DNA of 64,000 bases, taken from NCBI GenBank assembly GCA_965204375.1, contig OZ241986.1, forward strand, positions 352,001 to 416,000, written 5' to 3'. Source of the DNA: Candidatus Latescibacterota bacterium (GTDB lineage Bacteria > Latescibacterota > UBA2968). Below, piece by piece: positions 12,013 through 49,952 of this stretch. Each line of letters begins with the position of its first letter. The stretch's first letter is position 1. The notes below the pieces were generated by a model. The model had not been told where the DNA came from. It worked only from the letters and a program-made list of their open reading frames with translations, and did not search any database. The translations under genes and the position numbers were made by a program.

Positions 12013-13041
12013 ATGCAAAAATTGTCCCGTGATTCTACAATTCTCACCACCACAGTTGGGTCTTATCCGCTGCCCGACTGGCTCGTGGCAGCACCGAGTG
12101 AAACCGCTGTTGTGGATGCCACGCGCGTTATCTTCGATACGCAGCGTCAGGCTGGAATTGATCTGCCTACCGATGGCGAACTCTACCGATTTGACATCAA
12201 CCATCCCGAGACCAATGGCATGATCGAATATTTTGTGCGCCCTATGGGCGGTACGCGCGTCGATTTTGGGCGTACTGAGGTCGAGACATTTCGTCAACGA
12301 CAATCCATGGACTTTCGCGCCAAACCCGCTGCTGTTGTCGATGACGCGCTCTCAGAGGGGGCACTCGACCTGTTATCCGACTGTTTGCGTGCAGCAACCG
12401 TCGCAGGTGGTTCCTTCAAATTTACGCTTACCAGCCCCTATATGCTTGCCCGCACCTTGCTCGACAACTACTACGGAGATTTTGAAGCCCTGCTCATGGG
12501 GGTGGCCGATGTGTTGGCCGATCAGGTGCGCGGCCTGCCATGCGCCTGTGTACAGGTCGATGAAGCCAATATTCCGGGTAATCCCGAGGACGGGCCTATC
12601 GCAGCGAAGGCGATTAATAGAGTACTCGACGCGGTCGATCCCGATACTGAGAAAGCTGTTCACTTTTGTTTTGGAAATTACGGTGGGCAAACCATCCAAC
12701 GCGGCACCTGGCGCGCGCTTATTGATTTCCTCAACAATCTGCACACCGATCACCTCGTTCTCGAACTCGCCCATCGCCCTGATGATGATCTGGTTGCTCT
12801 GAAAGAAATTGATCCGCGCATCAAACTCGGCATTGGCGTGGTCGATATCAAAATTAATCACGTTGAAACTGCCGAACAGATTGCCCGACGCCTCGATTAC
12901 GCCGAAAAAGAACTCGGCCCGGGGCGCATCGCATTTATTCATCCCGATTGCGGGTTCTGGATGCTCAAACGCTCGGTGGCAGACCAAAAAATCGTAGCCC
13001 TCGCGCAAGGCAGAGATCTTTATTTGGGAAGGGTGAAGTGA
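12013..13041 (+). CDS. Cobalamin-independent methionine synthase catalytic-domain-only protein (MetE C-terminal family)
   Basis: TTTVGSYP.P, TDGE, VQVDE, Zn ligands HFC..., LELA and HPDCG. About 340 aa, with no N-terminal folate-binding half. Confidence 0.82.
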   Translation: MQKLSRDSTILTTTVGSYPLPDWLVAAPSETAVVDATRVIFDTQRQAGIDLPTDGELYRFDINHPETNGMIEYFVRPMGGTRVDFGRTEVETFRQRQSMDFRAKPAAVVDDALSEGALDLLSDCLRAATVAGGSFKFTLTSPYMLARTLLDNYYGDFEALLMGVADVLADQVRGLPCACVQVDEANIPGNPEDGPIAAKAINRVLDAVDPDTEKAVHFCFGNYGGQTIQRGTWRALIDFLNNLHTDHLVLELAHRPDDDLVALKEIDPRIKLGIGVVDIKINHVETAEQIARRLDYAEKELGPGRIAFIHPDCGFWMLKRSVADQKIVALAQGRDLYLGRVK

Positions 13042-13063
13042 GAAGGGTGAAGTGAGAGGGTGG
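13029..13063 (+). repeat. Heptamer tandem array AAGGGTG/AAGTGAG at a gene end
   Basis: AAGGGTG AAGTGAG AAGGGTG AAGTGAG AGGGTGG, spanning the stop codon. Confidence 0.8.
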
Positions 13064-13130
13064 TCAACTACAGCATAGGCAGTCATGCTCGAATGACTCG
13101 CCTTCATATCCCATTCCGTACATTCTATAC

Positions 13131-16100: not shown

Positions 16101-17828
16101 CGAGAAATTACAGGAGGTGCTTCCTTTTTATCGCAGGATGTGCTCTTGCCCACATTTGGTGTGGGCAAAGCCGAAAAAATCGAAGTGCTCTCCCTGCGCT
16201 GGCCCAGTGGTATTGTACAGCAATTTCGCAGTGATAGAGACGATTTATCGGTCAATCGCGTTATAGATATTACCGAAAAACCCTCCCTGCCCCCTGCTCG
16301 CGTTCTTTTGTTTGCAGACGCGGCCAATTTGCTGGCCAATGGTATCTCCGAAATTGAACTCACCGCACAGATCGTCACAATAGACAACAGACCTTTGCCC
16401 ACCAGCGATCAGGCGGTTAAATTCCGCATAGAGAGCGGTAGTGGTCTCATCATTTCTTCTCAGAGGTCCGAAGCCGCCGGAGATTCCGTCGCGGTGCGCG
16501 ATGGCGTGGCGTATGCGCGTTTTCGAGCAGGTCGAGACCATGGGCGCGTTGTCATGGTTGCCGAAAGTGCGGGTCTGGAATCCGGGCGCGTTGAGATAGA
16601 ACTCCTCAAACCTTTTGGAGAAGATGCCCTGACCATTCGCACTATCGCCGGTTCGGGCGATGAGGTCGGTGGGTTTCAAGGCGATGGCGGCGCAGCTATT
16701 GAGGCACTTCTTCAGCGACCACAAGGCGTATTGGTCGATCCGTTGGGCAATATTTATATTGCGGATACAGAGAATCACCGCATTCGCTTTGTGAGTGTGG
16801 AAACAGGTATTATCCAGACTATTGCAGGGACAGGATATGCGGAAGATATTAATATGCCTCGAGGTATGGTTCTTCAGGGCGATTTGCTCATCAGTCAGAT
16901 GGGCAATCACGTTGTGAGCACGGTGCAGGATGAGGTGTTGTTCGCCTTTGCAGGAATTGGAATTGGTCAGTTTGGAGGCGATGGGGGGCGTGCTTTGGAC
17001 GCCAATTTGAGAAGTCCTGCAGGGCTTGCCATTGACTCGCGAGGGAATGTCTATATCGCCGATACGGATAATCACCGCATTCGCAAAGTCGATGCCAATG
17101 GTATTATTACAACTATTGTAGGCAGCGGCGATCCGGATCAGGGCGCATTTTTGGGCGATGGTGGTGCGGCCACACAGGCGCGCTTAAATCGCCCCAGTGC
17201 GGTTGCTATTGACGCGCATGACAATATTTATATTGCGGATACGGATAATCACCGCATTCGCAAAGTCGATTCCAATGGTATTATTACGACCATTGTGGGA
17301 ATGGGAATTGGAGGATTTTCTGGCGATGGTGGTGCGGCCACACAGGCGCAACTTAATTCTCCAAAGGGTATTGCCGTTGATACACAAGGATATCTTTTTA
17401 TTGCCGATACGAATAATCATCGCATTCGCTTGCTCGATTTGAATAGCGGCTTGATCCAGACTGTGGCGGGCACGGGGTCGGGACAACTCGATTTCGAAGA
17501 AGGCAGTGCCCTCGCCGGAAGTCTCAATGCCCCACATGGTTTGGCTCTTAGTCCAACTGGCACCCTGTTAATTGCGGATGCAGCAAATCACAGAATACGA
17601 GAACTGTCTGTTCTCTTTGATTTGGCTTTTGCATTGCCTGCTGTTCCACAGGCAAAAGCCTTCGATTTCAATGCCGATGGTCGGTTCGATTTCGACGATT
17701 TTCGGATCTTTGTCAACGCTTTTGACTCCGCCGATATGCGCTTTGATCTCAATGCCGATGGTCGGGTTGGGTTCGACGATTTTTTACAATTTGCCAGGGT
17801 TTATGAAGTGAGAAGTGAGATGCCATGA
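13131..17828 (+). CDS. Large secreted repeat protein: NHL propeller, 2 choice-of-anchor-D/ASH Ig-like domains, FG-GAP/VCBS propeller + ASPIC/UnbV, Ig-like domain, NHL propeller, EF-hand/dockerin-like tail
   Basis: Signal peptide; repeated GNIYIADTDNHRIR and GDGG.A units; repeated WGDFDNDGDLDLYV and NRLYRNDG units; DAIGTR...GG.SFLSQ...FGVG...WPSG (UnbV); C-terminal DFNADGRFDFDDF...FDLNADGRVGFDDFLQF. Confidence 0.88.
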   Translation: MRYIYIFFCIFLISEAGVFAQTRGAIVTIAGGGLEDGDNVLATDVVLNRPLGIALDTRGNLYIADTDNHRIRRVDAITGIITTVAGTGEPGFSGDGGPATMALLNTPNAIAVDSAGNIYISSGGASESDVHNRRIRRIDAFGIITTVAGTGEGGFNDLVPALQATFHEIVALTMLGDIALLISDSLDENGQGNNRVRQFNLANNTIGTIAGNGSAQTSSIQDGGLATRAGLTPGQLAVTGNGDLLIADFNNGRIRRISRATRDTTVVVVINTVAGRGATSAENLSEDLYKGDGGPATGALFFSPSGVAIDGAGNIYIGDTGNNRIRVVETETGNVLTIAGTGVAGEGSEGTLGLLSDLGQPTHLLIDGNGDLIFIDAFNNRIRKLRDPAFRMPLFNAISTDIIFGRVSVGDPAVRHLRVENRGNLSVRIEAAISDNPGFRVLSELPFEVGIAQIAELEIVFDPVQTGVARGVITITTNDSRIPSATVNVQGWGDAANIGLFPSDVLIFDRTSIGQSQTLSVRISNLGAGVLVVPNATTTDSQFVVEQTDVLRIESGQSQRLPIIFRPQSEDLQQAVLTIFSNAPGTPAVRLQLRGIGQSAQPGGFVDVAPNMGLGDTGAGFGAAWADFDNDNDPDFYLVRSREPNRLYRNDGTGFTDIAPALGIDDSGDGSAGIWGDVDGDGDLDLYVTNFGESNRLYRNDGVRFTDIATTFGVDGSGDGYGAAWADYDRDGDLDLYVANFGANRFYRNDGNGFSERADSLGIGDIESGIQPAWGDFDNDGDPDLFLANSGPNRLFRNDGEQFTSVENIFSPVDTGPSFGATWGDFDNDGDLDLFIPYFGADNRFYINEDNGVFRDRAPEMMLNHDGRGRGAVWGDFDSDGFLDLYVTNSGQPNLYYQNEDGLFVEMSDSLGVALNADSRGVALADYDNDGKLDLYVAVQDGPDALFRNREADGNWIAIRLRGTDSSTDAIGTRLKIEFKDGDGNNRQAIREITGGASFLSQDVLLPTFGVGKAEKIEVLSLRWPSGIVQQFRSDRDDLSVNRVIDITEKPSLPPARVLLFADAANLLANGISEIELTAQIVTIDNRPLPTSDQAVKFRIESGSGLIISSQRSEAAGDSVAVRDGVAYARFRAGRDHGRVVMVAESAGLESGRVEIELLKPFGEDALTIRTIAGSGDEVGGFQGDGGAAIEALLQRPQGVLVDPLGNIYIADTENHRIRFVSVETGIIQTIAGTGYAEDINMPRGMVLQGDLLISQMGNHVVSTVQDEVLFAFAGIGIGQFGGDGGRALDANLRSPAGLAIDSRGNVYIADTDNHRIRKVDANGIITTIVGSGDPDQGAFLGDGGAATQARLNRPSAVAIDAHDNIYIADTDNHRIRKVDSNGIITTIVGMGIGGFSGDGGAATQAQLNSPKGIAVDTQGYLFIADTNNHRIRLLDLNSGLIQTVAGTGSGQLDFEEGSALAGSLNAPHGLALSPTGTLLIADAANHRIRELSVLFDLAFALPAVPQAKAFDFNADGRFDFDDFRIFVNAFDSADMRFDLNADGRVGFDDFLQFARVYEVRSEMP

Positions 17829-18448: not shown

Positions 18449-18476
18449 AAGGCGAGAAGAAAAATCTCCTCGCCTT
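18449..18476. terminator. Hairpin between convergent genes (likely terminator)
   Basis: AAGGCGAG...CTCGCCTT inverted repeat with an A-tract on the left (U-tract for the minus strand). Confidence 0.6.
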
Positions 18477-18503
18477 ATCGCGAATACGGGAAGCCATATT
18501 TGC

Positions 18504-22247: not shown

Positions 22248-22510
22248 GGTACACGAGATGGTTGCCCTCGGGCCAACCATGTCACAAATTGAAATTTTCC
22301 TGAAAAACAAAAAGCACCTACCCGTCCCTCCACCAAATCGCCAAATTCGACGTAAGGAACAAGCAGGTGCCTCGTGGACTGGTATGGCAACGCTGCTGAA
22401 ACGCTGTGCGTTCCGAAAATATTGTTTTTTTCACAGGCCAGTCGGCGGAAAATATAGCCAATCTCATATTCGAGGTCAAGGTCAAAGACGAAAAAAAAGG
22501 GAGAGATGAA

Positions 22511-23128
22511 ATGAAGCGGTTTACTACCGTTATTTTGCTCGGCTTGATATGGACGGCTCATGCGGAAGAAGATCGCAAGACGATTTTGTTTTTGGGGGAT
22601 AGCCTGACCGCGGGTTATGGCCTGGATAAAACGCAGGCTTTTCCCACGTTGATTCAGGCAAAGATCGATTCGCTCGGGTGGACGTTTGATGTGGTTAATG
22701 GCGGACTGAGTGGCGAAACATCGGCAGGAGGGTTACGGCGGGTCAACTGGTTGCTGCGGCGAAAAATCGATGTGCTGTTGCTGGCATTGGGGGGCAACGA
22801 TGGCTTGCGGGGGATTCCCACGGCTGAAATGCAGCAAAATTTGCAGGGGATTATAGATCTCGCAAAAGAGAAATATCCAGATATTCAGATCATACTTATG
22901 GGTATTGAAGCACCACCGAATTTGGGAGATGCATATACGACGGCTTTCCGCGCAGTGTTCCCGGCTCTATCTGAAAAGAATCGCGTGCCTTTGATACCCT
23001 TTTTGTTAGAAGGGGTTGGCGGGATTCCCGAACTGAATCTGCCAGACCGCATTCATCCCAATGCTGCGGGACATCGGATTATCGCAGAAACCGTGTGGCG
23101 CATACTTAAACCGGCATTAAAAAAGTAA
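22511..23128 (+). CDS. Arylesterase / acyl-CoA thioesterase (TesA-like SGNH hydrolase)
   Basis: Signal peptide, GDSLTAGYG, NGGLSGETS, LGGNDGLRG and DRIHPN motifs. Confidence 0.92.
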   Translation: MKRFTTVILLGLIWTAHAEEDRKTILFLGDSLTAGYGLDKTQAFPTLIQAKIDSLGWTFDVVNGGLSGETSAGGLRRVNWLLRRKIDVLLLALGGNDGLRGIPTAEMQQNLQGIIDLAKEKYPDIQIILMGIEAPPNLGDAYTTAFRAVFPALSEKNRVPLIPFLLEGVGGIPELNLPDRIHPNAAGHRIIAETVWRILKPALKK

Positions 23129-23162
23129 GAAGTGAGAAAAAAGAGAAAGGAAGAATGTGAAA

Positions 23163-23249
23163 ATGGATTTGCCAGAACGACCATTTGAGAATGAATACAT
23201 CGCCATACTGACCAGCATCATCAAAAAAATGCAAAGCAAACAACTCTAA
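23163..23249 (+). pseudogene. 28-aa mini-ORF, probable internally deleted four-helix-bundle (23S rRNA IVP/bAvd-like) gene
   Basis: MDLPERPFE + NEYIAILTSIIKKMQSKQL resembles the N- and C-termini of four-helix-bundle proteins. It is flanked by inverted heptamer arrays. Confidence 0.55.
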
Positions 23250-23265
23250 CTTCACACTTCCTCCT

Positions 23266-25827
23266 TTACACTTCGCCTCGCAATATTTCGAGTGGTGGTC
23301 GGTCGGCGATGCCGCGACTGTTGAGCATGCCGACTAAGATGGTGAGCGCGGTGACGAGGGCAAAGACGCCGACAATGGCCGCAGTGGGCAGGGCAAAGTG
23401 GATGTCGAAAATAAAGACGGTGACAGCCCAGGCACCGCCAATAGAGAGTATGAGTCCCGTCAGGGTAGCGAGTGCGCCCAGAAAGGTGTATTCCAGCAAG
23501 AGTATGCGGCGAATCTGTTTTTGAGATGCGCCCAAAGTACGCAGCAAAACGGCTTCTTGAATGCGCTGATAGCGGCTGGTGGTGACTGCGGCAGTTAGTA
23601 CAATGAGTCCGGTAATCACACTAAAGAGTGCCATGAAGCGCACGACAAAGGCGATTTGTGAGAGTACATCGTCAACGGTTTTGAGAATGAGACCGAGGTC
23701 AACAGCCGATACATTGGGGTATTGTTGTACCAGTGTGCGTTGCAATACAGCGGATTGTCCGGTTGTGTTTATGCGCGTGGTCAAGACGTGAAACTGCGGA
23801 GCGGTTTCGAGTACGCCTTTGGGAAAGACGATAAAAAAGTTTGGCTGGATGCGCTGCCAGTCAACTTCTCGCAGGCTTTGTACTGTGGTCTGAATGGGCA
23901 CGCCCTGGACGTCGAAGGTCAGGGTATCGCCGAGCGAGACGCGAAGCGAGCGGGCAATGTCGCGCTCAAAAGAAATGGGGATGGGTTCTTCGGTCCGTTC
24001 TGTATCGATCCAGGTGCCGCCTACGAGGCGTTCTGAATCGAAGAGGTGATTGCGATAGGTCGAGCGGTATTCGCGTTGTATTGCCCAGCGCCGCACGTCG
24101 TGTATTCTGCCGTAGGAACGCGCCTCTTGACCTTTGATGCTCTTCAGACGCATGGTGACGATGGAGGCATGGTGAATGACGGGCAGATTCTGTTTGCGGA
24201 GTAACGCGCTTACGCCTTCAATCTGATCGGTTTGCACATCGACGAGCACAAAGTTGGGGCGGTTGTCGCTCCCCGCGATGGCAATTTGAGCGAGCAAGGC
24301 GTGTTGCACAATATAGAGCGTGGTGATGAGAAAGGTGCCGAGGCCCAATGCGAGCATGAGAATTACGGTCTGATTGTGTGGACGGTAGAGGTTGGCCAGG
24401 CCCTGTCGCCACACGTATTGCCAGGTTGTGGGAAAGAAGCGGCGAACGGTTTTGATGATGAGCCACGATGCGCCTATGAGGAGTCCAAAGGCAATGCCAA
24501 ACCCGATGGCAATGCCAATTCCAATGAGGATACTACTGGTTTGCACAATGCCCAATCCCGCGACAATGAGACAGATCCCGCCGATGGTCATCAGTTGTAG
24601 GGGGTCTATTTGGGATCGCGCGTTTTCAAAAGATGCCCGCAAGGTGTGTAGGGGTGATGTGCGGCGAATAGGCAACAGGGGGAGCAATGCAAAGAGTAGC
24701 GACAGACTCAGGCCAATGCCGGTACCTTGAATGATCGCCCAATAGGAAAACTGAATATCGAGTTCAATAGGCAGAATTTGTGCGAGAACACCGGGCAGGA
24801 GATACTGAATGCCCATACCGAGGAGAGAACCGCAGCCCGTGCCAATAAGACCCAGCGCGATAGCCTGGATGGCGTAAATGCAGAGGATCTGATTCGATTG
24901 CGCACCCATGCAGCGCAGGATGGCGACGGTTGTTATTTTTTGGCGCGTATAAACGTGAATGGCACTGGCAACGCCGATACATCCGAGTAAGAGGGCGGCA
25001 AAGGCGACAAGACTGAGGAAGATATAGAGATTATCCAATATGCGATTGAGGCGTCTTTGACGGCTGGCAACGGTTTCGGTACGCAAATTTTGATCCCCGC
25101 GGTAGGGGCGAAGCTCGCGCTGGATGGATCCGATTCTCGTGCTGCTATCAAACTTAAAATAGGCCGCATAAGACGCCAGACTGCCAAATTTGATGAGGCC
25201 CGTTTTATCGAGATGCGATAAGGGGATGTACACACGCGGTGCAACTGTGGCAAAGGCCATAGCCTCGCCCGATATTTTTGTGATGCGTCCGCCTATGACA
25301 AAGGTGTGGTTGCCAATTCGCACAGAATCGCCGACCTGAACCCCAAATTGGATGAGCAAGCCATCGTCGAGTAGCGCGTGATGGGTATGCTGAAAGGTCT
25401 TCGACGCTTGTAGTGGATTGGTTTCAAATGTGCCGTAATAGGGAAAGTCGCCTTGTAGTGCACGCACCTGTACCAGGCGGGTGCCGCCGTTTTTGGGAAA
25501 GAAGACCATCGAGGCAAAGCGCACTTCTCTGGATTGCTCCCCACCCCATGAGTTGAATAGGGAGTCAACCGCAGGGGCAAAAGCACGCTGGCTGCTGACG
25601 CGCAAATCAGCACCTAAAAGTGTGCGCGCTTCGTTTTCGACAACGCGTTGCAGGTTATCGCCCAGAGCGCGAACGGCCACGAGGCCACCCACGCCGAGCA
25701 ATATACAGGAAATAAAGAGTAGCAATCGGTGGCGATACGTGCGACTATCGCGCCAGGCCATGCGCCAGGTCCATGCGTTGAAGAGTGGGCTGGAGGTCTG
25801 ATTTTTAATGCTGGTGATTCGATCCAT
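23266..25827 (-). CDS. ABC transporter permease, YbbP-like (double FtsX)
   Basis: MAWRD.R, LLGADL, FPYYG, AILRCMGA, PNF.LVDVQ.DQ and E..LLRTLGAS motifs. Confidence 0.9.
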   Translation of the reverse strand: MDRITSIKNQTSSPLFNAWTWRMAWRDSRTYRHRLLLFISCILLGVGGLVAVRALGDNLQRVVENEARTLLGADLRVSSQRAFAPAVDSLFNSWGGEQSREVRFASMVFFPKNGGTRLVQVRALQGDFPYYGTFETNPLQASKTFQHTHHALLDDGLLIQFGVQVGDSVRIGNHTFVIGGRITKISGEAMAFATVAPRVYIPLSHLDKTGLIKFGSLASYAAYFKFDSSTRIGSIQRELRPYRGDQNLRTETVASRQRRLNRILDNLYIFLSLVAFAALLLGCIGVASAIHVYTRQKITTVAILRCMGAQSNQILCIYAIQAIALGLIGTGCGSLLGMGIQYLLPGVLAQILPIELDIQFSYWAIIQGTGIGLSLSLLFALLPLLPIRRTSPLHTLRASFENARSQIDPLQLMTIGGICLIVAGLGIVQTSSILIGIGIAIGFGIAFGLLIGASWLIIKTVRRFFPTTWQYVWRQGLANLYRPHNQTVILMLALGLGTFLITTLYIVQHALLAQIAIAGSDNRPNFVLVDVQTDQIEGVSALLRKQNLPVIHHASIVTMRLKSIKGQEARSYGRIHDVRRWAIQREYRSTYRNHLFDSERLVGGTWIDTERTEEPIPISFERDIARSLRVSLGDTLTFDVQGVPIQTTVQSLREVDWQRIQPNFFIVFPKGVLETAPQFHVLTTRINTTGQSAVLQRTLVQQYPNVSAVDLGLILKTVDDVLSQIAFVVRFMALFSVITGLIVLTAAVTTSRYQRIQEAVLLRTLGASQKQIRRILLLEYTFLGALATLTGLILSIGGAWAVTVFIFDIHFALPTAAIVGVFALVTALTILVGMLNSRGIADRPPLEILRGEV

Positions 25828-25895
25828 GAGGCAAATTAAAAATTAGGAATGGGGGCTGTTTGGGTGGACTGACCACTGATTTTGGGTGGCGGGGT

Positions 25896-25930
25896 ATCCT
25901 GTTCATCCTTTAATCCTGCACATCCTGATC
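25896..25930 (+). repeat. Degenerate 9-mer tandem array (ATCCTGxxC)
   Basis: ATCCTGTTC ATCCTTTA ATCCTGCAC ATCCTGATC; the opposite strand encodes the DQDVQD* tail of the ATPase. Confidence 0.7.
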
Positions 25931-26599
25931 CACTTTGCCACCTTGCAGGTGGATGATGCGCTGCGTGCGTGCGGCGATATCGTGATCGTGCGTGACGAGG
26001 ATGAGGGTTGTGCCCGCTTCGCGGTTGAGGTCAAAGAGCAGATTGGCGATGGTATGACTGCTGTCGGCGTCGAGGTTGCCCGTAGGCTCGTCGGCAAATA
26101 AGATGCGCGGTTGGTTGATAAAGGCGCGTGCAATGCCCACGCGCTGTTGTTCGCCACCCGAAAGCTGAGCGGGATAATGCGTCAAGCGGTCGCCCAATCC
26201 CACGCGGTCGAGCAATTCTCTCGCTTCGCCAAACACACCGTTTTTACCGCGTAGTTCGAGGGGAACCGCGACATTTTCAATGGCGGTGAGGGTGGGGATG
26301 AGTTGAAAGCTCTGAAAGACAAAGCCCACGTATTCATTTCGCACGGCTGCGCGTTGGTCTTCGTCGAGGCTGTCGAAGGCCATGCTGTGAAGGGTGACAG
26401 TGCCCGATGTTGGGCGATCAAGGCCGGCACATAATCCGAGTAGCGTGGTTTTTCCACTGCCCGAGGGTCCTACTATCGCACAGGTTTGGCCTTTGGGTAT
26501 GGTGAACGTGACGTTGTCTAAAACGGTGAGCGAATGTCCCCCGCTCGTGTAGGTGCGGGTGAGGTTTTGAACTGCGAGTGCTGTGTTTGAATGGCTCAA
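25910..26599 (-). CDS. ABC transporter ATP-binding protein, YbbA/LolD-like
   Basis: [26 protein letters not shown] and VTHD motifs. Confidence 0.93.
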
Positions 26600-27883: not shown

Positions 27884-27884
27884 A

Positions 27885-31864: not shown

Positions 31865-32713
31865 ATGGACACACCATATCGCACCATCGACGTGAAACCT
31901 CTATCTGGAGCACTCGGCGCTGAAATTGAAGGCGTTGACATTGCGTCGGAGACCGGTGAGGAACAATTCGCTGAAATCTATCGGGCCTTTGCAGATTACA
32001 GCGTGATTCTCTTTCGCAATCAGTCCCTCACACAGGAACAACACATTGCATTTGCCCGACGCTGGGGAGATATCAATGTCAACCGATTTTTTACGGGCGT
32101 AGCGGAAAATCCCCTCATCGCCGAGGTACGAAAAGAACCCGATCAGGAAACCAATATTGGGCGCAACTGGCATACCGATCATTCTTACGATACCATTCCC
32201 GCACTCGGCTCGATTCTTTACGCACGCGAAGTTCCCGAGTTTGGTGGTGATACGATGTTTTCCAGTATGTACAGAGCGTATGAAACCCTCTCGCCGGGGT
32301 TGCGGAAAACGCTCGAAAACTTAAATGCCCTGCATTCCAGCCGACATGTTTTTGGAGCGATGAACGGCAGAAAGCCCGATAAAAGCGGTCGTATTGGCAA
32401 TCCCGAACTCGCCACCCAGGATGCTGTCCATCCCATAATCATAAGGCACCCTATCTCAGGTCGCAAAGCACTTTACGTAAATCCCGTGTTCACCGTTCAA
32501 ATTGAGGGATGGAAAAAAGAAGAATCCCAATCTTTGCTTCAGTATTTGTACCAGCACGCTTCCCAACCGGATTTTACATGCCGCATCCGCTGGAAAAAAG
32601 ATACGCTCGCTATTTGGGACAACCGCGCGACCTGGCATTGCGCGCTCAATGATTATCAGGGACAGCGACGCCTCATGCACCGCATCACGATTGAAGGTGT
32701 GCCGTTGAATTAA
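31865..32713 (+). CDS. TauD/TfdA family Fe(II)/2-oxoglutarate dioxygenase
   Basis: LGAEIEGVD, WHTD, GGDT and WDNRATWH...R motifs. Confidence 0.93.
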   Translation: MDTPYRTIDVKPLSGALGAEIEGVDIASETGEEQFAEIYRAFADYSVILFRNQSLTQEQHIAFARRWGDINVNRFFTGVAENPLIAEVRKEPDQETNIGRNWHTDHSYDTIPALGSILYAREVPEFGGDTMFSSMYRAYETLSPGLRKTLENLNALHSSRHVFGAMNGRKPDKSGRIGNPELATQDAVHPIIIRHPISGRKALYVNPVFTVQIEGWKKEESQSLLQYLYQHASQPDFTCRIRWKKDTLAIWDNRATWHCALNDYQGQRRLMHRITIEGVPLN

Positions 32714-32732
32714 AAATTAGGAGAACCCATCG

Positions 32733-33653
32733 ATGGCATCCGTAACCTTTAAAGGCGTCTTTCCCATCCTGGTCACCCCATTCGATGACCATGGCAACCT
32801 CGATCTGGAATCTTTTGATCGAACGGTACGCTTTATGACGGATATCGGTGTAAATGGCGTTACCATCATTGGAGTACTCGGTGAATCCAACCGAATGCTG
32901 GATACCGAACGGGAACAGCTTATTAAAACCGCTGTGGGTGCTGCGGAAGGGCGCATTCCCGTTATTGTGGGTACGAGCTACAGCGGCACGGAGGCGACCC
33001 TTGAACTCAGCCGGATGGCCGAATCTCTCGGCGCTGCCGGTGTGATGGTCACCCCCTCGCGCGAATCCGTGCCCAATGAAGACCGCATCTTCGAATTTTT
33101 CCAGCAGGTGGCCGAAGGCATCTCCATTCCCATCGTTGTACAGGACCACCCCGCCTCCGCCCAGGTCCACATGTCCGTCTCTCTCATCCTGCGCCTCGTC
33201 CGCGAAATTCCGCTCGTCGCCTGCATCAAAGAAGAGGCCGTGCCCACACCGCCCAAGATCACTGCCCTTTTGAACGGCATTGGTGACCGCGCGGTCACCA
33301 TCCTTACCGGCCTCGGCGCTCTCTACGGCGCTTTTGATCTGGCCCGCGGCGCACACGGTTTTATGACCGGCTTTGCCTTTCCCGAAGTTCTGCTCGCTCT
33401 GGTCCGGGGCGCTGAAAATAAAGACTTTGACACCGTACACGATATCTATCACCGATACCTGCCGCTCATCGTGTACGAACAGCAGCCAGGGGTGGCTCTC
33501 CGCAAAGAGATTTTCCGCCAGCGCGGCCTGATCGCCAGCAGCTACGTGCGCCATCCCGGCGCAAATATTGACCCAATCACTGCCGACCACTTGAAATCAC
33601 TATTGCACAAAATGCTGCCCGGTGTAGATATTACGAGACCTATTGAAGTGTGA
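32733..33653 (+). CDS. DapA/NAL-family aldolase/dehydratase, copy 1
   Basis: PILVTPF, GVLGE, IPVIVG and Schiff-base IKEE motifs. Confidence 0.9.
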   Translation: MASVTFKGVFPILVTPFDDHGNLDLESFDRTVRFMTDIGVNGVTIIGVLGESNRMLDTEREQLIKTAVGAAEGRIPVIVGTSYSGTEATLELSRMAESLGAAGVMVTPSRESVPNEDRIFEFFQQVAEGISIPIVVQDHPASAQVHMSVSLILRLVREIPLVACIKEEAVPTPPKITALLNGIGDRAVTILTGLGALYGAFDLARGAHGFMTGFAFPEVLLALVRGAENKDFDTVHDIYHRYLPLIVYEQQPGVALRKEIFRQRGLIASSYVRHPGANIDPITADHLKSLLHKMLPGVDITRPIEV

Positions 33654-33688
33654 ATGGCAGGATTTAGGCTTTAGAAGAGGATTCGATC

Positions 33689-35742: not shown

Positions 35743-37104
35743 TTGGCTAACGGTCAACTCTTACACCTGCTAACCGCCCGCGCCGAGTCTAAAAATCCCC
35801 TTCGCGTGGGCCTTATCGGTGCTGGAAAGTTCGGCACCATGTTCCTGGCTCAAGCCCGTCGCGTTGCGGGGTTGCACGTTCTGGGTGTGGCTGATCTATC
35901 CCTGAATCGGGCGCGTGAAGCCCTCACGCGTGCTGAGTGGCCGCCCGAACAATTTGCCGCAACCCACTTTGATCACGCCCTCAAAACCGGCGCCACCCAT
36001 CTTACCGATGACAGCGATGCCCTCATCCAGGCGGACGGTCTGGACGTTCTGGTCGAAGCCACGGGCAATCCTCTCGCAGGCATCCACCACGCCCTTCAAG
36101 CCATCGAATACGGACGCCACCTGGTCATGGTAAATGTGGAAGCAGACGTCCTGGTCGGTCCCATCCTGGCCCAACGTGCAGCATCTGCAGGCCTCGTGTA
36201 CTCCCTCGCCTATGGCGACCAACCCGCTCTGATCTGTGAACTGGTGGAATGGGCTAAGACCAATGGCTTGGACATTGTCTGCGCCGGCAAAGGCACCAAA
36301 TACCGGCCCGCGTACCACACATCTACCCCTGATACTGTATGGGAACACTATGGTTTTGATGCTGAAACCGCTGCAAAAGGCGGTCTGAACCCCCGTATGT
36401 TCAACTCCTTTTTGGACGGTACAAAATCCGCCATTGAAATGGCCGCTGTCTCAAATGCCACTGGCCTGAATCCCCAGCCCGAAGGCCTGAAATTCCCGCC
36501 CTGCGGCATTGACCAGCTATCCGATATTTGCCGGCCTCATAGCGACGGGGGACAACTTTCCCACAAAGGAACCGTCGAAGTCGTCTCCAGCCTGCAACCA
36601 GACGGAACCCCTGTAGATCGGGATCTGCGCTGGGGTGTTTACGTCACCATCGAAGCCCCTGGCGACTACATCCGCCGCTGCTTCTCCGAATACGGCCTTC
36701 CCACTGATTCCACGGGACGTTACACGGCCATCTATCGCCCCTACCACCTGGTTGGCATGGAACTCACCACCAGTGTCTTGCGCGCTGGCTTGCGCGGCGA
36801 AGCCAGCGGCGCACCTGTTGTTTTTAATGCAGACGTTGTTGCCACTGCAAAACGCGATCTCTCCCAGGGAGAAGTCCTGGACGGCGAAGGCGGATATTGC
36901 GTGTACGGCAAACTCAGGCCGGCTGATCAAGCTCTTATGTCTAACACCCTGCCCATCGGTCTGGCTCACAATCTCAAGCTGAAACACAAAATCGCCGCGG
37001 GGCAACCCATACGCCAATCCGACGTTGAATTGGACGAAAACAACGCCATTCTCCGCCTCCGCCGGGAAATGGTACAACGCTTTGCGGAACCTCTGCGCCG
37101 TTAA
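35743..37104 (+). CDS. NAD(P)-dependent oxidoreductase, homoserine-dehydrogenase-like with C-terminal SAF domain (COG4091-type)
   Basis: GLIGAGKFG, MVNVEAD, YGDQPA, FNSFLDGTKSAIEM, YRPYHL and AKRDL..GE.LDGEGGY motifs. Confidence 0.9.
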   Translation: MANGQLLHLLTARAESKNPLRVGLIGAGKFGTMFLAQARRVAGLHVLGVADLSLNRAREALTRAEWPPEQFAATHFDHALKTGATHLTDDSDALIQADGLDVLVEATGNPLAGIHHALQAIEYGRHLVMVNVEADVLVGPILAQRAASAGLVYSLAYGDQPALICELVEWAKTNGLDIVCAGKGTKYRPAYHTSTPDTVWEHYGFDAETAAKGGLNPRMFNSFLDGTKSAIEMAAVSNATGLNPQPEGLKFPPCGIDQLSDICRPHSDGGQLSHKGTVEVVSSLQPDGTPVDRDLRWGVYVTIEAPGDYIRRCFSEYGLPTDSTGRYTAIYRPYHLVGMELTTSVLRAGLRGEASGAPVVFNADVVATAKRDLSQGEVLDGEGGYCVYGKLRPADQALMSNTLPIGLAHNLKLKHKIAAGQPIRQSDVELDENNAILRLRREMVQRFAEPLRR

Positions 37105-37132
37105 ATTAAAAATTAGGAAAGGGAGCAAAACA

Positions 37133-37453
37133 ATGAACAATGAACAATCGCTTTTGCCACCGAAAATTTCATTTTTTGAAAAACGATTGACAATAATTCT
37201 TGCTCGAGATGATGCGATGGTATGCGCTTTCTGTCCCGAATTGGATTTGGTGACTGAAATGGCAACGCCCGATGAAGCACTGGAAGATATGCTGGAAGCC
37301 ATGCAGGATTATGCTGAGGAATATTTAGAGGACTTAGAAATTTATCAAAACAGTCCCAATTGCGCCCATCATTTGCCTTATATCCAGGCGATTGCTGAGT
37401 GTAAAGATGTCTGGGATATAGGAGAACCCCTCGATGGCATCCATAACCTTTAA
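37133..37453 (+). CDS. HicB-like antitoxin-fold small protein, possibly C-terminally truncated
   Basis: AFCPELDLVTEMATPDEALEDMLEAMQDY is a HicB-type motif. The last codons are read from the dapA copy 2 leader. No hicA is nearby. Confidence 0.65.
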   Translation: MNNEQSLLPPKISFFEKRLTIILARDDAMVCAFCPELDLVTEMATPDEALEDMLEAMQDYAEEYLEDLEIYQNSPNCAHHLPYIQAIAECKDVWDIGEPLDGIHNL

Positions 37454-38354
37454 AGGTGTCTTTCCCATCCTCGTCACTCCATTTGATGACCATGGCAACC
37501 TCGATCTGGAATCCTTTGATCGAACGGTACGCTTTATGGCGGATATCGGTGTAAACGGCGTTACCATCATTGGTGTACTCGGTGAATCCAATCGAATGCT
37601 GGATACCGAACGGGAGCAGATTATTAAAACCGCTGTGGGTGCTGCAGGCGGGTGCATCCCCGTTATCGTGGGCACGAGCTACAGCGGCACACGGGCGACC
37701 CTTGAACTCAGCCAGATGGCCGAATCTCTCGGCGCCGCCGGTGTGATGGTCACTCCTTCGCGCGAATCCGTGCCCAACGAAGACCGCATCTTCGAATTTT
37801 TCCAGCAGGTGGCCGAAGGCATCTCCATTCCCATCGTCGTACAGGACCACCCCGCCTCCACCCAGGTTCACATGTCCGTCCCTCTCATCTTGCGTCTCAT
37901 CCGCGAAATTCCGCTCGTCGCCTGTATCAAAGAAGAGGCTGTGCCTACCCCGCCCAAGATTACCGCCCTTTTGAACGGCATTGGGGACCGTGAGGTCACC
38001 ATCCTCACTGGCCTCGGCGCTCTCTACGGTGCCTTTGACCTTGCCCGCGGCGCACACGGTTTTATGACCGGCTTTGCCTTTCCCGAAGTTCTGCTCGCCC
38101 TGGTTCGGTGCGCTCAAAATAAAGACTTTGACACCGTACACGATATCTATCACCGATACCTGCCGCTCATCGTGTACGAACAACAGCCGGGGGTGGCCAT
38201 CCGCAAAGAGATCTTCCGCCTGCGCGGCCTTATCGCCAGCAGCTACGTGCGCCATCCCGGCGCAAATATCGATCCAATCACTGCCGATCACTTGAAATCA
38301 CTCTTGCACAAAATGTTGCCCGGCGTGGATATTACGAGACCTATCGAGGTTTGA
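37434..38354 (+). CDS. DapA/NAL-family aldolase/dehydratase, copy 2
   Basis: 306 aa, with 15 substitutions relative to copy 1 by manual comparison. Confidence 0.9.
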   Translation: MASITFKGVFPILVTPFDDHGNLDLESFDRTVRFMADIGVNGVTIIGVLGESNRMLDTEREQIIKTAVGAAGGCIPVIVGTSYSGTRATLELSQMAESLGAAGVMVTPSRESVPNEDRIFEFFQQVAEGISIPIVVQDHPASTQVHMSVPLILRLIREIPLVACIKEEAVPTPPKITALLNGIGDREVTILTGLGALYGAFDLARGAHGFMTGFAFPEVLLALVRCAQNKDFDTVHDIYHRYLPLIVYEQQPGVAIRKEIFRLRGLIASSYVRHPGANIDPITADHLKSLLHKMLPGVDITRPIEV

Positions 38355-38688
38355 GATGTGGTTTCGTGTTATTTAAAACCTTTACTGATAAGATCATCAT
38401 AACTAACAGGTTCTTGGATAGCCTCAGCGAACTCTCTTGCTTCGTTATGAGAAGGAAATTTCTTAACTAAATAACCACGACCACTAAAACAATCAACTTC
38501 TACTATATGATCGTCTGGTGGATCTTTAAATCCATATATTGTAATTTTACATTTGTCGGCATCTGAAGCATCCCCATTAGGCCAATCATCTTTTATCGGT
38601 AAGGGAGGAGAAGGGTGACAGTAACTAAATCTCCGAGCTTGTGCTCTTTTCCGATTAACTTCCGAATCAAAAAATCTTGCTTTTCTAA

Positions 38689-44165: not shown

Positions 44166-44215
44166 AGAAACCCCCTTGATAGTAGAAATTGGGGTATGTA
44201 TTGGATCATATATAC

Positions 44216-45115: not shown

Positions 45116-45158
45116 GGCGGAGTACTCCTTTTAAAAGTTGGTTTATTGCAAAATTAAG

Positions 45159-47522: not shown

Positions 47523-47543
47523 GATTGTTTCCTAAATGCCAAT

Positions 47544-48590
47544 TTATTGCACTTTTCCACGTCCGGCAACTTTCCATATATGTTCTACATTGCCATTTCG
47601 CACGGCATAGACTTCGTCGTGGAGGTTGGTGGTCATGCCCTGGTGCAGGGGGATGACAGAGAGGCGGTCGCCTACGGTGAAGGTGTGATTGCATTCCGAA
47701 ACATCGACGTGACCGTGTTCGACGGACATGCCGTAGATTTTGGCATGGGGATGTTCAACGATGTACCCATAAGGTGTGGGGGCATAACTGGTGAATGTTT
47801 TTTGCCCACCATCGATGATGACGCGGTCAGGTGTGGGTGTGCTGACGATGGTGACAATCATGCGTTCGGCACAGGTGATGGGGTTGGGCGGGTTGTGTTC
47901 GCGGTTGATGCGGCGCAGACCTTCAAAGACGTAGGATCCAATGCGGGTTTCGGTGCAACTTATGGCTTTGGAAACTTCGGCAGTGCCCGTGCCACCTCCG
48001 CTGATGGTGTTGAGCGCGATGCCCGCGCTTTGGAGCAGGTCGCGCGTTTGGTCGATGAAGGCTTTGGCGCGTTCGTGACTGGGATAGGTCATGATGCCCT
48101 GGAACTGAAGGCCGGGCATGGTTGTCACTTTTCGCGCGAGTTCAAGCGCGGCTTTGGGCGATTGTACGCCGCAGCGATTGCCACCGGTGTCGCATTCGAT
48201 GAGGATGTTGACGGTGACGTCGTTTTCTATTGCGCCATCGGATAGACCACGCGCGGTGATTTCCGAATCGACTGCAACGGTCATAGTGGCGCGTTTACAC
48301 AGTTTGGCGAGGCGTTTGACTTTGATGGGGCCGACGATATTGTAGGGAATGAGGATGTCGGAAATGCCCGCTTCAACCATGGCTTCGGCTTCGCCCACTT
48401 TTTGGCAGACAATACCAATGGCTCCCGCAGCGAGTTGCATTTTGGCGATTTCGGGGATTTTGTGCGTTTTGGTGTGTACGCGCAGGGGAATGTCGCATTC
48501 GTCGCACGCCTCCTGAGTTTCTCGAATATTTTTTTCGAGGATATCGAGGTCGATGGTGAGCGCAGGTGTGTCGAGGTCGTGTATGGTCAT
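47544..48590 (-). CDS. D-threonine aldolase/DSD1-like PLP-dependent enzyme (alanine racemase fold)
   Basis: LDTPAL.ID, RVHTKTHK, CQKVGEAE, RCGV, SGGGT, DGGQK and SVEHG motifs. Confidence 0.9.
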   Translation of the reverse strand: MTIHDLDTPALTIDLDILEKNIRETQEACDECDIPLRVHTKTHKIPEIAKMQLAAGAIGIVCQKVGEAEAMVEAGISDILIPYNIVGPIKVKRLAKLCKRATMTVAVDSEITARGLSDGAIENDVTVNILIECDTGGNRCGVQSPKAALELARKVTTMPGLQFQGIMTYPSHERAKAFIDQTRDLLQSAGIALNTISGGGTGTAEVSKAISCTETRIGSYVFEGLRRINREHNPPNPITCAERMIVTIVSTPTPDRVIIDGGQKTFTSYAPTPYGYIVEHPHAKIYGMSVEHGHVDVSECNHTFTVGDRLSVIPLHQGMTTNLHDEVYAVRNGNVEHIWKVAGRGKVQ

Positions 48591-48808
48591 GGCAATATCT
48601 GTTATTACAAGGTGAAAGATGGTGTTGTGCAGGAATAGGCAATGTACGTTGGTCAGGGAAGGGCGTCAAGCGGTTGTGGCGTGTTGAATCTTGCCAATAG
48701 TGAAAGACGGTCTGCGTTGACAATGTGTAAGGTGTTGTGTTATTTATGTGGTCAGATTTACTGGCGTTGTAATGCTGGGTTGATCGTTAACTTAATCGAG
48801 GAGGCAAA

Positions 48809-49894
48809 ATGGCAGATAAATTGAAGGTGGGTATTGTCGGAGTAGGAGGTATTGCGCGGACGCATATTCCGGGTTGGCAGGCTTCGGAACATGCCGAATT
48901 GGTGGCTGGAAGCGATATTAGCGAAGATGTGTTGAAGGATTGGGGTGAACAATACGGGATCAAAAAACTGTATGTAAATCCGGAAGATTTGTTTGCCGAT
49001 CCAGAGATAGATATTGTGGATGTGTGTACACCAAATAATTATCACGCGCCTCTATCTATTGGCGCGCTGGATGCGGGTAAACACGTGATTTGTGAAAAAC
49101 CTCTGGCACCCAGTCCTCAATTGGTGAAAGATATGATTGCTGCGCGCGACTCGTCGGGCAAGTTGTTGATGTGCGCGCAGTCGTCGCGGTTTGCGGGATC
49201 ATCTCTGGCGATGAAGCGGGAATTGGATACCGGGGTGTTGGGAAATGTGTATCACGCGCGGTGCTGGATGTTGCGGCGGTCGGGTGTGCCCGCGCGGCCG
49301 GGTTTTATTATGAAAAAACACAGTGGTGGCGGGCCGTGTATTGATATTGGCGTTCACGTTTTGGATTTGACGCTGTGGTTGATGGGCAATCCCAATCCCG
49401 TAGCTGTAACGGGGGTGGCGAAGGCGGAGTTGGCACATCAGGAGGGTGCTTTCAGTACGATGGGGCGCAGTGGTGGCGCGATTCCCGAAGAGTTTGATGT
49501 GGAGGATTTTGCAGCGGCTTTTGTGCGGTTTGAAAATGGGGCTTCCCTTATTCTGGAGACGAGCTGGATGTTGCATCAAGGTCCCCCGTCAGAACGGCAA
49601 ATATGGCTTTACGGCACAAAGGGTGGGGCACACTTGCCCAGTTGTGAGATTTATTATTCGGATTCCAATACGCAGCAACATCACAAATACGCATTGCAAG
49701 ATACGGGCGATATCGCCAGAGCACACGCGCTGGAATGCATGACGTTTGCCGAGGCGATTACAGAGGGCAAACCGTCGCCAGTGCCGGCTGAACAGTCGCT
49801 ACAGGTGATGGCGATTTTGGATGGGATTTATCGCAGTGAAGAGGAAGGGCAGGAAGTGGATATAGCGCGAGATGCAAAAATAATTAAGAATTAA
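48809..49894 (+). CDS. Gfo/Idh/MocA family oxidoreductase
   Basis: GIVGVGGIA, GKHVICEKP and GGGPCIDIGVH motifs. Confidence 0.93.
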   Translation: MADKLKVGIVGVGGIARTHIPGWQASEHAELVAGSDISEDVLKDWGEQYGIKKLYVNPEDLFADPEIDIVDVCTPNNYHAPLSIGALDAGKHVICEKPLAPSPQLVKDMIAARDSSGKLLMCAQSSRFAGSSLAMKRELDTGVLGNVYHARCWMLRRSGVPARPGFIMKKHSGGGPCIDIGVHVLDLTLWLMGNPNPVAVTGVAKAELAHQEGAFSTMGRSGGAIPEEFDVEDFAAAFVRFENGASLILETSWMLHQGPPSERQIWLYGTKGGAHLPSCEIYYSDSNTQQHHKYALQDTGDIARAHALECMTFAEAITEGKPSPVPAEQSLQVMAILDGIYRSEEEGQEVDIARDAKIIKN

Positions 49895-49952
49895 GAATTG
49901 GCCCCGCCCCGCCTTTCCAATTTTTAATTTCTAATTTTTAATTCCTAATTGA
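49882..49952. repeat. Inverted pair of heptamer arrays between convergent genes
   Basis: AATTAAG AATTAAG AATTGGC, a GC spacer, then CAATTTT TAATTTC TAATTTT TAATTCC TAATTGA. Confidence 0.8.

Follow-up and report, generated by a model that had tools for sequence, protein, structure and literature searches.

Short tandemly repeated repetitive (STRR) heptamers were reportedly described by Mazel et al. in 1990 from Calothrix and other heterocystous cyanobacteria, where they are said to be dispersed in non-coding DNA, and we know of no polarity rule, core or cargo gene described for them. Reports of such heptamers between bacterial genes go back to that year, and two later papers leave their function and spread unexplained (PMC4692102, PMC4679880). 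In this study we analysed repeats of this kind in a stretch of 64,000 nucleotides from a Candidatus Latescibacterota bacterium (GCA_965204375.1, contig OZ241986.1, positions 352,001 to 416,000), which as a whole is called the window below. Tandem arrays lie at the ends of several of its genes, and we consider it reasonably likely that they are the arms of small stem-loop elements between genes, resembling both the intervening sequences (IVS) of 23S rRNA and miniature inverted-repeat transposable elements (MITEs), whose loop occasionally holds a gene for a four-helix-bundle protein.

Repetitive extragenic palindromic (REP) sequences, together with bacterial interspersed mosaic elements (BIMEs) and REP doublets forming hairpins (REPINs), are short palindromic intergenic repeats which are present in tens to hundreds of copies, form mosaics, vary between strains and go with RAYT transposases, and the attC sites of integrons are imperfect hairpins that bracket small, often unannotated genes, with a cassette content that varies between strains. 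The Avd protein of diversity-generating retroelements is a relative of the four-helix-bundle family. The IVS in the 23S rRNA of Coxiella has a 28-bp terminal stem that is cut by RNase III and a decaying S23p open reading frame (ORF) in the loop. Upstream of this ORF it has two to three GACAGAT heptamers in tandem, depending on the strain, and it was deemed selfish (PMC4990558). Rehm et al. (2015) described intergenic heptamers, GGGAATC in Xanthomonas and GGGGAYT in Nostoc, for which no link to known mobile elements was found (PMC4692102). MacGregor (2015) described TAACTGA repeats in Beggiatoaceae, cyanobacteria and Bacteroidetes, in 169 direct sets and 1 indirect set, proposed a role in translational regulation and took their patchy distribution among phyla to suggest horizontal spread; since forward TAACTGA repeats stop all three frames, they overlap only the very ends of ORFs (PMC4679880). 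In the open-licence literature we found no published link of four-helix-bundle (S23p) genes to flanking tandem repeats outside rRNA; the repeat class is already described, as intergenic heptamers and as IVS elements, and the link between the two may be new.

An original prediction, made from the letters of the window, had read the arrays as integrase-free sites at which small genes are gained and lost as exchangeable micro-cassettes, or else as footprints of an uncharacterised mobile element. The features that it cited are present, four of the arrays being called by Tandem Repeats Finder (TRF, score of at least 30 in the window) and three degenerate ones being recognised by eye. Its second suggestion comes close to the reading favoured here, but gene-cassette exchange in general did not survive the analysis.

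Placement and polarity of the arrays

The window is part of a single-contig genome (G000) of 6.34 Mb and 50.8% G+C, in a genus with at least 20 sister species, and all gene positions given here come from our own crude model of ORFs and codon usage (5149 ORFs, 89.2% coding). The commonest 10- to 16-mers of this genome were tandem GAAGTGT (one 16-mer with 236 copies), the octamer TAGACGAA, the decamer CGCAGATGAA and CRISPR repeats. Over the whole genome TRF called 2893 arrays, including 430 of period 7, 293 of period 8 and 331 of period 10; the units included AAGTGTG (82 arrays), AAGTGAG (41), AAGAAGT (25) and AAGGGTG (14) for period 7, AATAGACG (51) and AACGAATC (23) for period 8, and AACGCAGATG (46) and ACGCAGATGG (35) for period 10.

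The results showed that 66% of the bases in period-7 arrays were intergenic, in comparison to 10.8% of the genome by the crude gene model; 180 of the 430 arrays were fully intergenic, 93 lay across a gene end and 157 were within genes, and arrays of periods 6, 12 and 15 were almost wholly within genes. The 255 intergenic arrays (among 467) were distributed over divergent (54), convergent (49) and tandem (152) gaps, indicating that they are not specific to 3' ends. For 117 of 151 intergenic GAAGTGN arrays the side nearer to an ORF was the array's own 5' side (median 13 nt in comparison to 90 nt), and the octamer, decamer and AATTAAG families share this abutment of the 5' side on an ORF. The 5' end lay within 10 nt of an ORF or overlapped it in 68 of these 151 arrays, in comparison to 22.8 +/- 3.7 (largest value 39) in 1000 trials of random placement within the same gap, so that the claim that the arrays mark gene ends and are not randomly placed was upheld by this count as well as by the intergenic share. 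The arrays supply stop codons because their units hold TGA or TAA and their period is not divisible by 3; the family AACGAATC is placed by the same rule, and its unit, as read, has no stop on the strand concerned. A repeated unit, a bias towards non-coding DNA, abutment of the 5' side on an ORF and variation in length, by which membership among long-unit heptamer (STRR-type) repeats was judged, were all found. Similar to the heptamers of Xanthomonas and Nostoc, the arrays are biased to intergenic DNA, turn their own 5' side to an ORF whatever its orientation, overlap stop codons, form convergent inverted pairs and vary strongly in length and sequence between related species. They differ from these in their units (GAAGTGN, AATTARR, octamers and decamers), in arms that are not G-quadruplex formers, in their presence in divergent gaps, which are under-represented for the Xanthomonas and Nostoc heptamers but not here, and, so far as those heptamers are described in the accessible text, in the 38-nt core and the four-helix-bundle link reported below (PMC4692102).

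To describe polarity, each GAAGTGN array was assigned to the strand on which GAAGTG is read. In convergent gaps these arrays were sense to the nearer gene (20 versus 3, and 28 versus 5) and in divergent gaps antisense to it (19 versus 5, and 21 versus 7), which means that left and right arrays both read towards the middle of the gap. Among 234 oriented arrays there were 50 adjacent facing pairs no more than 2 kb apart, 43 of which enclosed 100 nt or less, with modes of the spacing at 38-39, 46 and 53 nt, in comparison to six pairs in the opposite order, none of them within 300 nt. When 598 mostly intergenic arrays of periods 7-10 and 14 were labelled by purine content only, adjacent pairs no more than 150 nt apart were purine-then-pyrimidine in 66 cases versus the reverse in 2, which bears out the inverted pairs of the original prediction, and at 151-1500 nt the preference was gone (9 versus 10). 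Of those nine, seven bracket an ORF of 166-476 aa, one brackets a four-helix-bundle cassette and one holds no ORF above 38 aa. A GAAGTGT scan of 119 loci showed a facing NNNCTTC array within 200 nt downstream in 20 of 108 cases and upstream in 0 of 115; the scan for (GAAGTGT)x3 also matches Nostoc, Calothrix and Rivularia. A Thermoanaerobaculia record from the pattern scan was rejected as a member of the window's genus, the repeat alone having matched. The likeness to the TAACTGA repeats lies in tandem intergenic heptamers with stops in all frames, and the difference is that facing pairs dominate here (PMC4679880).

Most array pairs enclosed 29-67 nt, often a conserved 38-nt core, GAAGGCCCCGCCCAACCGCCCAAAGGCTGGTGCCTCATC, with (GAAGTNA)n before it and (ACACTTC)n after it, arrays that reach about 30 units. 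Profile matching gave 67 copies of the core in the genome; the crude model puts 10 of them 'inside' ORFs and the others in divergent (13), convergent (15) and tandem gaps (29, of which 16 are sense and 13 antisense). Complete core elements folded as long imperfect hairpins (z -2.5, -4.0 and -6.0). A search of Rfam with 12 core elements returned no family, with sub-threshold generic miRNA-precursor matches only, and window positions 12000-51000 matched no family at the gathering score. There were also mosaic elements, which combine an AATTAAR left arm and a G-rich core with a right arm of another family (CATCTGCGTT decamers, ACTGACA heptamers or ATCCTGNNN nonamers), and window 25834-25930 is one of these. 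The 38-nt-core elements were clustered, 16 of the 67 lying within 0.39 Mb (G000:C1 4.12-4.52 Mb). By hand count, the orientation of 47 of the 67 cores agreed with the local GC skew (minimum at 5.19 Mb and maximum at 1.71 Mb), the C-rich side of the core falling on whichever genome strand is richer in C, and this bias fits many explanations.

Four-helix-bundle genes between arrays

A complete gene of 118 aa at G000:4542442-4542798, flanked by (GAAGTTA)n and (CACTTCA)n x20, matched TIGR02436 'four helix bundle protein' (6.5e-32) and PF05635 '23S rRNA-intervening sequence protein' (9.6e-26), and in the fold of the full cassette the two arms pair and leave the ORF as the loop (z -3.1, with none of 100 shuffles as good). 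The ORF at 23163 of the window, MDLPERPFENEYIAILTSIIKKMQSKQL followed by a stop, is this gene with its middle deleted, which retains the N-terminal DLPERPFE and the C-terminal NEYIAILTSIIKKMQSKQL. The homology between the two extends through a purine-rich leader into the arrays on both sides, and the claim that ORF 23163 is a collapsed four-helix-bundle gene was thus substantiated by a full copy between the same arms. Part of the 83-nt interior of the window site (23161-23243) is found once more in the genome (4542747-4542792), beside a 140-nt ACTTCAC array, and the collapsed ORF was absent at this junction in all 15 other species compared. The gene cargo of G000 amounts to this one intact and one collapsed PF05635 copy only.

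Within the genus, a PF05635 gene was found in 7 of 21 genomes, one in each, and these genes were flanked by inverted arrays of other units, GGGGCTG/CCAGCCC or CAGTGGC/GCCACTG. One of the seven is a weak match in genome G009 (L179, G009:C2:3198427-3201696), directly followed by a reverse-transcriptase-like ORF (..RIVSAAPFRDRVVHH..); judged by eye, it is probably the Avd gene of a diversity-generating retroelement and not an array-flanked cassette. For a wider sample of the phylum, 101 genomes were drawn regardless of repeats, 36 of which had PF05635 genes, and 30 loci were returned. An array of period 5-14 was present in 44 of 57 windows flanking PF05635 genes in comparison to 27 of 108 control windows, which lay at a distance of 580-1160 nt. 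Upstream of the gene the array was usually purine-rich, and downstream it was pyrimidine-rich with a complementary unit. Five genomes from outside the phylum (two Nostoc, a Calothrix, a Wenzhouxiangella and a Thermoanaerobaculia), with 4-10 PF05635 genes each, gave 33 matches, of which 27 were analysed, the others being three without a locus and three that were partial or broken (L228, L235 and L238). Here arrays were found in 52 of 54 flanking windows in comparison to 35 of 106 controls, and on both sides of 25 of the 27 genes; both-sided counts used a permissive TRF threshold, which the control windows balance. PF05635 genes were near-universally flanked by arrays in four phyla, and the association of four-helix-bundle genes with arrays in the original prediction was therefore confirmed by both samples. 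At one orthologous junction between microcompartment-type genes in two genera, both octamer arms had changed together, with GTGACA/TGTCAC in comparison to GTGCCA/TGGCAC, the arms being AAGTGACA and its complement in one genus and AAGTGCCA and its complement in the other.

Similar to the Coxiella IVS, the elements have inverted ends that form a stem, a PF05635-family ORF in the loop and variable purine-rich heptamers upstream, and unlike the 23S IVS they lie between protein genes, or in three relatives inside them, and not in helix 25/45 of 23S, with most of them having no ORF (PMC4990558). Of the defining traits of an IVS, the terminal stem is represented by the full cassette (z -3.1), by the element at 49879 of the window (z -3.9) and by the core elements (z -2.5 to -6.0), and the PF05635 ORF is found in the loop, but the location in helix 25/45 of 23S is not shared. 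The IVS of 23S are proven RNase III substrates, whereas cutting by RNase III is here putative (PMC4990558).

A four-helix-bundle cassette was also observed within an N6_N4_Mtase DNA methylase gene in G001 (L174, 1109-3314), G017 (L175) and G094 (L186), two of which belong to the window's genus and one to another family. It stands between ..GEPDI and GVDVFHPNTGEVRS.., in place of a 15-residue linker that is continuous in G000 (C1:5504492-5505391, L239). The left arm of the cassette stops the N-terminal part, and the right arm is followed by an open frame of 113 aa without an obvious start; as this frame is 88-90% identical among the split genomes and G000, both halves of the methylase appear to be under selection. 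Here the cassette is an intervening sequence within a gene that codes for a protein.

Variation of the junctions and the origin of the arrays

The features of the window are collected in Table 1. The window was compared with its syntenic counterparts in five sister species (G002, G008, G010, G016 and G018), and the permease gene with its neighbours was syntenic in 16 loci of the genus, including the window's own; public metagenome and RNA runs were compared as assembled contigs.

Table 1. Array sites and associated features, in positions of the window
Feature	Position	Strand	Basis or remark
Purine-rich left arm, (GAAGGGT GAAGTGA) x2.5	13028..13062	+	TRF period 14/7
Variable filling from the arm to the NHL-repeat gene, which starts at 13131	13063..13130	.	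short local stem at about 13079-13103
(GAAGTGA) x2.3 array	17805..17820	+	TRF
Degenerate purine-rich left arm	23123..23160	+	by eye, below TRF score 30
Collapsed four-helix-bundle gene, 28 codons	23163..23249	+	internal deletion
Pyrimidine-rich right arm, ACTTCAC-type units on + strand	23244..23278	-	by eye, below TRF score 30
Two AATTARR units (14-mer), left arm of mosaic element	25834..25847	+	7 nt from permease start codon
G-rich core (..TTTGGGTGG..TTTTGGGTGGCGGGG..) of mosaic element	25848..25895	+	related to module flanking the GxxExxY gene
Nonamer array ATCCTGNNN x4, right arm of mosaic element	25896..25930	+	by eye, not called by TRF
14-mer in 19-nt spacer between TauD-family gene and DHDPS-family copy 1	32708..32721	+	ribosome-binding AGGAG
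14-mer in 28-nt spacer upstream of antitoxin-like gene	37104..37117	+	conserved
PHD_like antitoxin gene	37133..37453	+	3' end cut by duplication breakpoint 37419
71-nt hairpin element between convergent genes	49879..49952	.	TRF arms, fold
Left arm of the 49879 element, AATTAAG x2.6	49882-49899
GC-rich loop of the 49879 element	49900-49913
Right arm of the 49879 element, TTTCTAA/TTTTTAA x5.3	49914-49950		TRF period 7/14

The clearest pair of filled and empty states was found at the element at 49879, whose left arm supplies the KIIKN* end of the GFO/IDH/MocA gene and which folds better than shuffles (z -3.9, 1 of 200 as good). The orthologous junction in G018, G008 and G010 and a paralogous junction of G016 measured 6 nt (CGTTGA), and that of G002 held an unrelated filling of 124 nt. 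Since four of the five species have the 6-nt junction, the 71-nt hairpin is inserted sequence, which has taken the place of the final oxidoreductase codons; the original prediction had taken this site as the empty state, which is the reverse of what the comparison gave. Among the features by which a MITE is recognised, arm-like inverted ends are present and this one clean pair showed no clear duplication; no parent element was identified.

At the other sites the arrays likewise reach into coding sequence, and stop codons lie within arrays at 13039, 17826, 23126, 25910 and 49892. The arm at 13028 includes the stop (13039-13041) of a Meth_synt_2-like gene (11992-13041), and copy number, unit and filling at this junction differ in the five sister species, G002 having no array. 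Its filling ends in a degenerate pyrimidine-rich tail, and a part of 25-29 nt was found three more times in the genome; it had been described as filled with a hairpin, but the site folds no better than shuffles (z -1.2). The array at 17805 encodes EVRSEMP*, the C-terminal end of a 1565-aa NHL/FG-GAP protein whose stop overlaps the Sua5/YrdC start at 17825. Two species have one extra unit at this junction (31 nt in comparison to 24 nt) and three others have GAGGTGA arrays and inserted hairpin modules (95-135 nt). The left arm at 23123 starts inside the end of the GDSL-lipase gene (22406-23128), taking in its final codons and stop, and runs on as the 5' leader of the collapsed ORF; homology links it to the left flank of the complete cassette (G000:4542401-4542460). 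The right arm at 23244 includes the stop and last codons (..GEV*) of the minus-strand FtsX/MacB-type permease gene (23266-25827). Read on the minus strand, the nonamer array at 25896 provides the ABC ATPase gene (25910-26599) with its stop and its last residues, DQDVQD*. The three array-encoded protein ends of the original prediction, EVRSEMP*, KIIKN* and DQDVQD*, were thus all verified.

The lipase-permease junction (23129-23265) is 137 nt long in the window and 11, 11, 11, 13, 18, 35, 39, 52, 76, 90, 98, 100, 133, 142 and 160 nt in the other 15 loci. Its shortest alleles keep one AAGTGAG, which holds the lipase stop, and one TCACACTTC, which holds the last codons of the permease; longer alleles have extra units, decamer arrays, a 38-nt-core element (L013) or other hairpin modules. 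The next junction (25828-25909) ranges from 44 to 319 nt across the 16 loci, with 2-4 AATTARR units of varying sequence in 12 of them and none in L005, L009, L014 and L016, and the G-rich core at 25848 is missing in some sister species. Array-free neighbouring junctions were mostly constant in length (701, 391, 36, 30, 21, about 218, about 90 and about 187 nt), and a few of them carry gene or MITE insertions. The elements have thus been gained, lost and resized between sister species, the flanking genes being 90-95% identical, and the claim that the same orthologous junction can be empty, short or differently filled held for the sister species. Variation was also seen in metagenomes: a contig of run X4, an independent metagenome, had 14 extra bases, equal to two units, at 23267, and a contig of run X7 carried an allele of 25828-25895 without the core. 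The nonamer array at 25896 is a high-copy dispersed module, with a spike of depth and many loose ends at 25895/25929 in four runs, and it recurs at G000:3.83 Mb. A MITE-like insertion of 150-200 nt, with terminal inverted repeats CTGA[CT]GT..ACATCAG and an internal ..GTCAT[TG]CTGAGCGGAG.. hairpin, was observed in L003 (ortholog of 25828-25909) and in G002 (ortholog of window 52614-52703) and is absent from the window at those sites.

The reading of the arrays as arms of stem-loop elements builds on the observed polarity, abutment on genes, core, fold of complete elements, variability between species, collapse of ORF 23163 and association with PF05635. An element would consist of a purine-rich array (units of 7, 8 or 10 nt) with its 5' end on one gene, a loop, and a pyrimidine-rich array on the other gene, and the loop would range from about 10 nt, via the conserved 38-nt core, to a complete four-helix-bundle (TIGR02436/PF05635, 'S23p') gene. 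The length of the arms would change by replication slippage. With TGA or TAA in purine-rich units whose length is no multiple of 3, arrays stop all frames and may creep into gene ends, where they would replace dispensable last codons. The arms might pair in transcripts and be cut by RNase III, as in the IVS of 23S rRNA, and an RNase III gene is present in G000. New junctions could be reached by recombination or gene conversion between arrays, or by a trans-acting factor. In all probability the elements are selfish or neutral and not a host system for swapping genes.

Several results weigh against this interpretation. Arrays are abundant in the genus genomes that have no PF05635 gene (14 of 21), so the gene is cargo and not the cause, and the five genomes from outside the phylum were chosen through the GAAGTGT scan and are hence array-rich. 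The single 23S gene of G000 (3031 nt, against a model of 2925 positions) holds no TRF or GAAGTGN array. Many pairs of arms are not complementary, for instance AATTAAR on the left with CATCTGCGTT or ACTGACA on the right; four of the five folded window sites (13027, 17801, 23118 and 25828) do not beat shuffles (z -0.3 to -1.6), and a test of duplex energy between own and foreign arms was noisy and weak, the own pair being the best at 8 of 28 loci. No enzyme or mechanism of spread was identified, and the genome has no Y1/RAYT transposase: a search for the RAYT/IS200 Y1 family (PF01797) gave 0 matches in G000, in comparison to matches in 6 of 14 reference genomes in the control search. The elements resemble REP and BIME as palindromic intergenic mosaics and differ from them in having no Y1/RAYT gene and in arms which are tandem arrays and not a fixed palindrome.

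The alternative that fares best is that the arrays are plain simple-sequence repeats, which arise by local slippage, are tolerated only outside genes because of a period that is no multiple of 3, and have neither an identity as elements nor a link to a gene. Copy number does change in steps of one unit between species and populations, the arrays occur in all kinds of intergenic gap roughly by length (54, 49 and 152), and even in the shortest alleles the outermost units coincide with conserved gene ends; the over-representation of heptamers has also been ascribed to slippage elsewhere (PMC4692102). Local slippage would, however, have to produce one unit at hundreds of loci, a fixed polarity of 66 versus 2 and 67 copies of a 38-nt core, and it leaves aside a 71-nt hairpin inserted whole, arms that co-vary, and PF05635 genes enriched between arrays. 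We therefore regard plain slippage as unlikely.

Gene exchange, regulation and wider comparison

Exchange of small genes as cassettes at integrase-free recombination sites, the model of the original prediction, appears improbable to us in its general form. In its favour, one and the same junction may hold nothing, a 38-nt-core element, decamers, hairpin modules or the collapsed cassette; the four-helix-bundle cassette occupies two loci of G000 with homology running into both arrays, and it sits within the methylase gene of three other genomes where that of G000 is uninterrupted. Against it, 43 of the 50 facing pairs enclose 100 nt or less and the polarity is lost among pairs 151-1500 nt apart, where seven of the nine purine-then-pyrimidine pairs bracket ORFs of 166-476 aa, so that the arrays do not in general delimit exchangeable genes; there is one intact PF05635 gene here and one per genome in 7 of 21 congeners. 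In the assembled contigs of the public runs, no joint precisely skipping the element was found at 17805 or at 23123-23278; the RNA contigs of run X8 cover genes on either side of 23060-23272 and do not bridge it, which shows nothing either way. The elements are also unlike an integron in being scattered among housekeeping genes, not set in one unidirectional array, and in mostly enclosing no gene. Paired cores as in attC were not found in the 38-nt core, which by reading of the alignment has one GCCCAAC-like (RYYYAAC) heptamer and no GTTRRRY on the same strand.

Other genes and sites had been assigned to the same system, and these fit it less well. The one clear GxxExxY/PDDEXK_3 gene of G000 (PF13366, 6.4e-38; L180, G000:C1:3830132-3833473), a type of gene expected between array pairs, lies amid four direct copies of the G-rich core with ATCCTGNNN nonamers and TCAGACA, the module of window 25848-25930, and not between inverted arms. 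The HicB-like gene at 37133, proposed as the filling of an array site, is not bracketed by arrays and ends at a duplication breakpoint. Its ortholog in G016 is full-length and has a HicA toxin gene after it. In the window, a second copy of a DHDPS-family gene abuts and truncates it; the duplication spans 940 bp (32718-33656 and 37419-38358) and its copies are 92% identical in DNA and 95% in protein. Separately from this, gene content between TauD and DHDPS varies by 1.4-2.7 kb among the sister species.

The 14-mer AATTAAAAATTAGG, which had been put forward as an identical junction site, does occur exactly at 25834, 32708 and 37104. It has four occurrences in the 6.34-Mb genome, three of them within the window, and with up to 2 mismatches there were 6 matches in the window in comparison to a mean of 0.56 (largest 3) in 100 shuffles. 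The role as a junction site was not borne out at two of these places. The spacer at 32708 reads GGATTAAAGTTAGG in G018 and GAATTAAAGTTAGG in G010, and the spacer at 37104 is identical in G016 and has one base changed, outside the 14-mer, in G018; both are ordinary conserved spacers with ribosome-binding sites and not polymorphic junction sites. The DHDPS duplication was rejected as the cause of the 14-mers at 32708 and 37104, since the duplicated blocks start downstream of them (32718 and 37419) and do not explain their recurrence.

Host regulatory elements under selection (terminators or 3' hairpins that stabilise mRNA, leaders acting in translation, G-quadruplex elements, or all-frame 'backstop' stops) would agree with arrays placed directly at stop and start codons, with some strong hairpins between convergent genes, with purine-rich arms that stop all three frames (see also PMC4679880) and with cores that are G-rich on one strand, but the complete core elements show no preferred orientation to the flanking genes (16 sense, 13 antisense; 13 divergent to 15 convergent), sister species with 90-95% identity in the flanking genes differ in the presence and size of elements, the AACGAATC family obeys the placement rule without a stop and no Rfam family matches, which together make selection for regulation improbable.

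If the arrays are arms of stem-loop elements, a broader and more tentative proposal is possible, namely that one widespread selfish IVS-like class exists, whose full form is an S23p/Avd-like gene between purine-rich and pyrimidine-rich arrays. The STRR, Xanthomonas, Beggiatoaceae and uncultured-phyla heptamers might then be its ORF-less or decayed arms, with loops copied from junction to junction through ordinary recombination of their homologous arms, no dedicated integrase being needed, and placed even within protein genes, such as the methylase of three relatives, where selection on the two gene halves would persist. Through the fixed polarity of the arms across unit families and phyla, the conserved core and the embedding of PF05635 genes, a descriptive puzzle is turned into testable claims: RNase III would cut the arms, recombination between arrays would move the content of the loop, and arrays without an ORF would descend from gene-bearing elements. 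For annotation, the repeats supply the last codons and stop of many genes and differ in this between close relatives, and small ORFs between arms may be decayed remnants.

The genes beside these sites are ordinary and include, in addition to the Meth_synt_2-like enzyme, the 1565-aa NHL/FG-GAP protein, Sua5/YrdC and the GDSL lipase, the FtsX/MacB permease with its ABC ATPase, TauD, two DHDPS-family paralogs, a DRL-type oxidoreductase, the GFO/IDH/MocA oxidoreductase and a metallophosphatase. The permease is 96-97% identical to that encoded in public 'Candidatus Latescibacterota bacterium' records, and coral and sponge metagenome runs contain near-identical DNA. Three CRISPR-like repeats, which start GTTTCAATACCCCAGTA.., CAGGAAGGATTACCCG.. 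and GTTTCAATCCTTGTTGTGGTGGAATACCTC.. and have about 76, 71 and 55 copies, respectively, are among the commonest k-mers of G000, and none of them is inside the window. A contig of run X2 skips 177 bases within the NHL/FG-GAP repeat gene (window 17060-17238), whose part at 16262-17825 aligns poorly to the sister species, the repeat region being variable in length.

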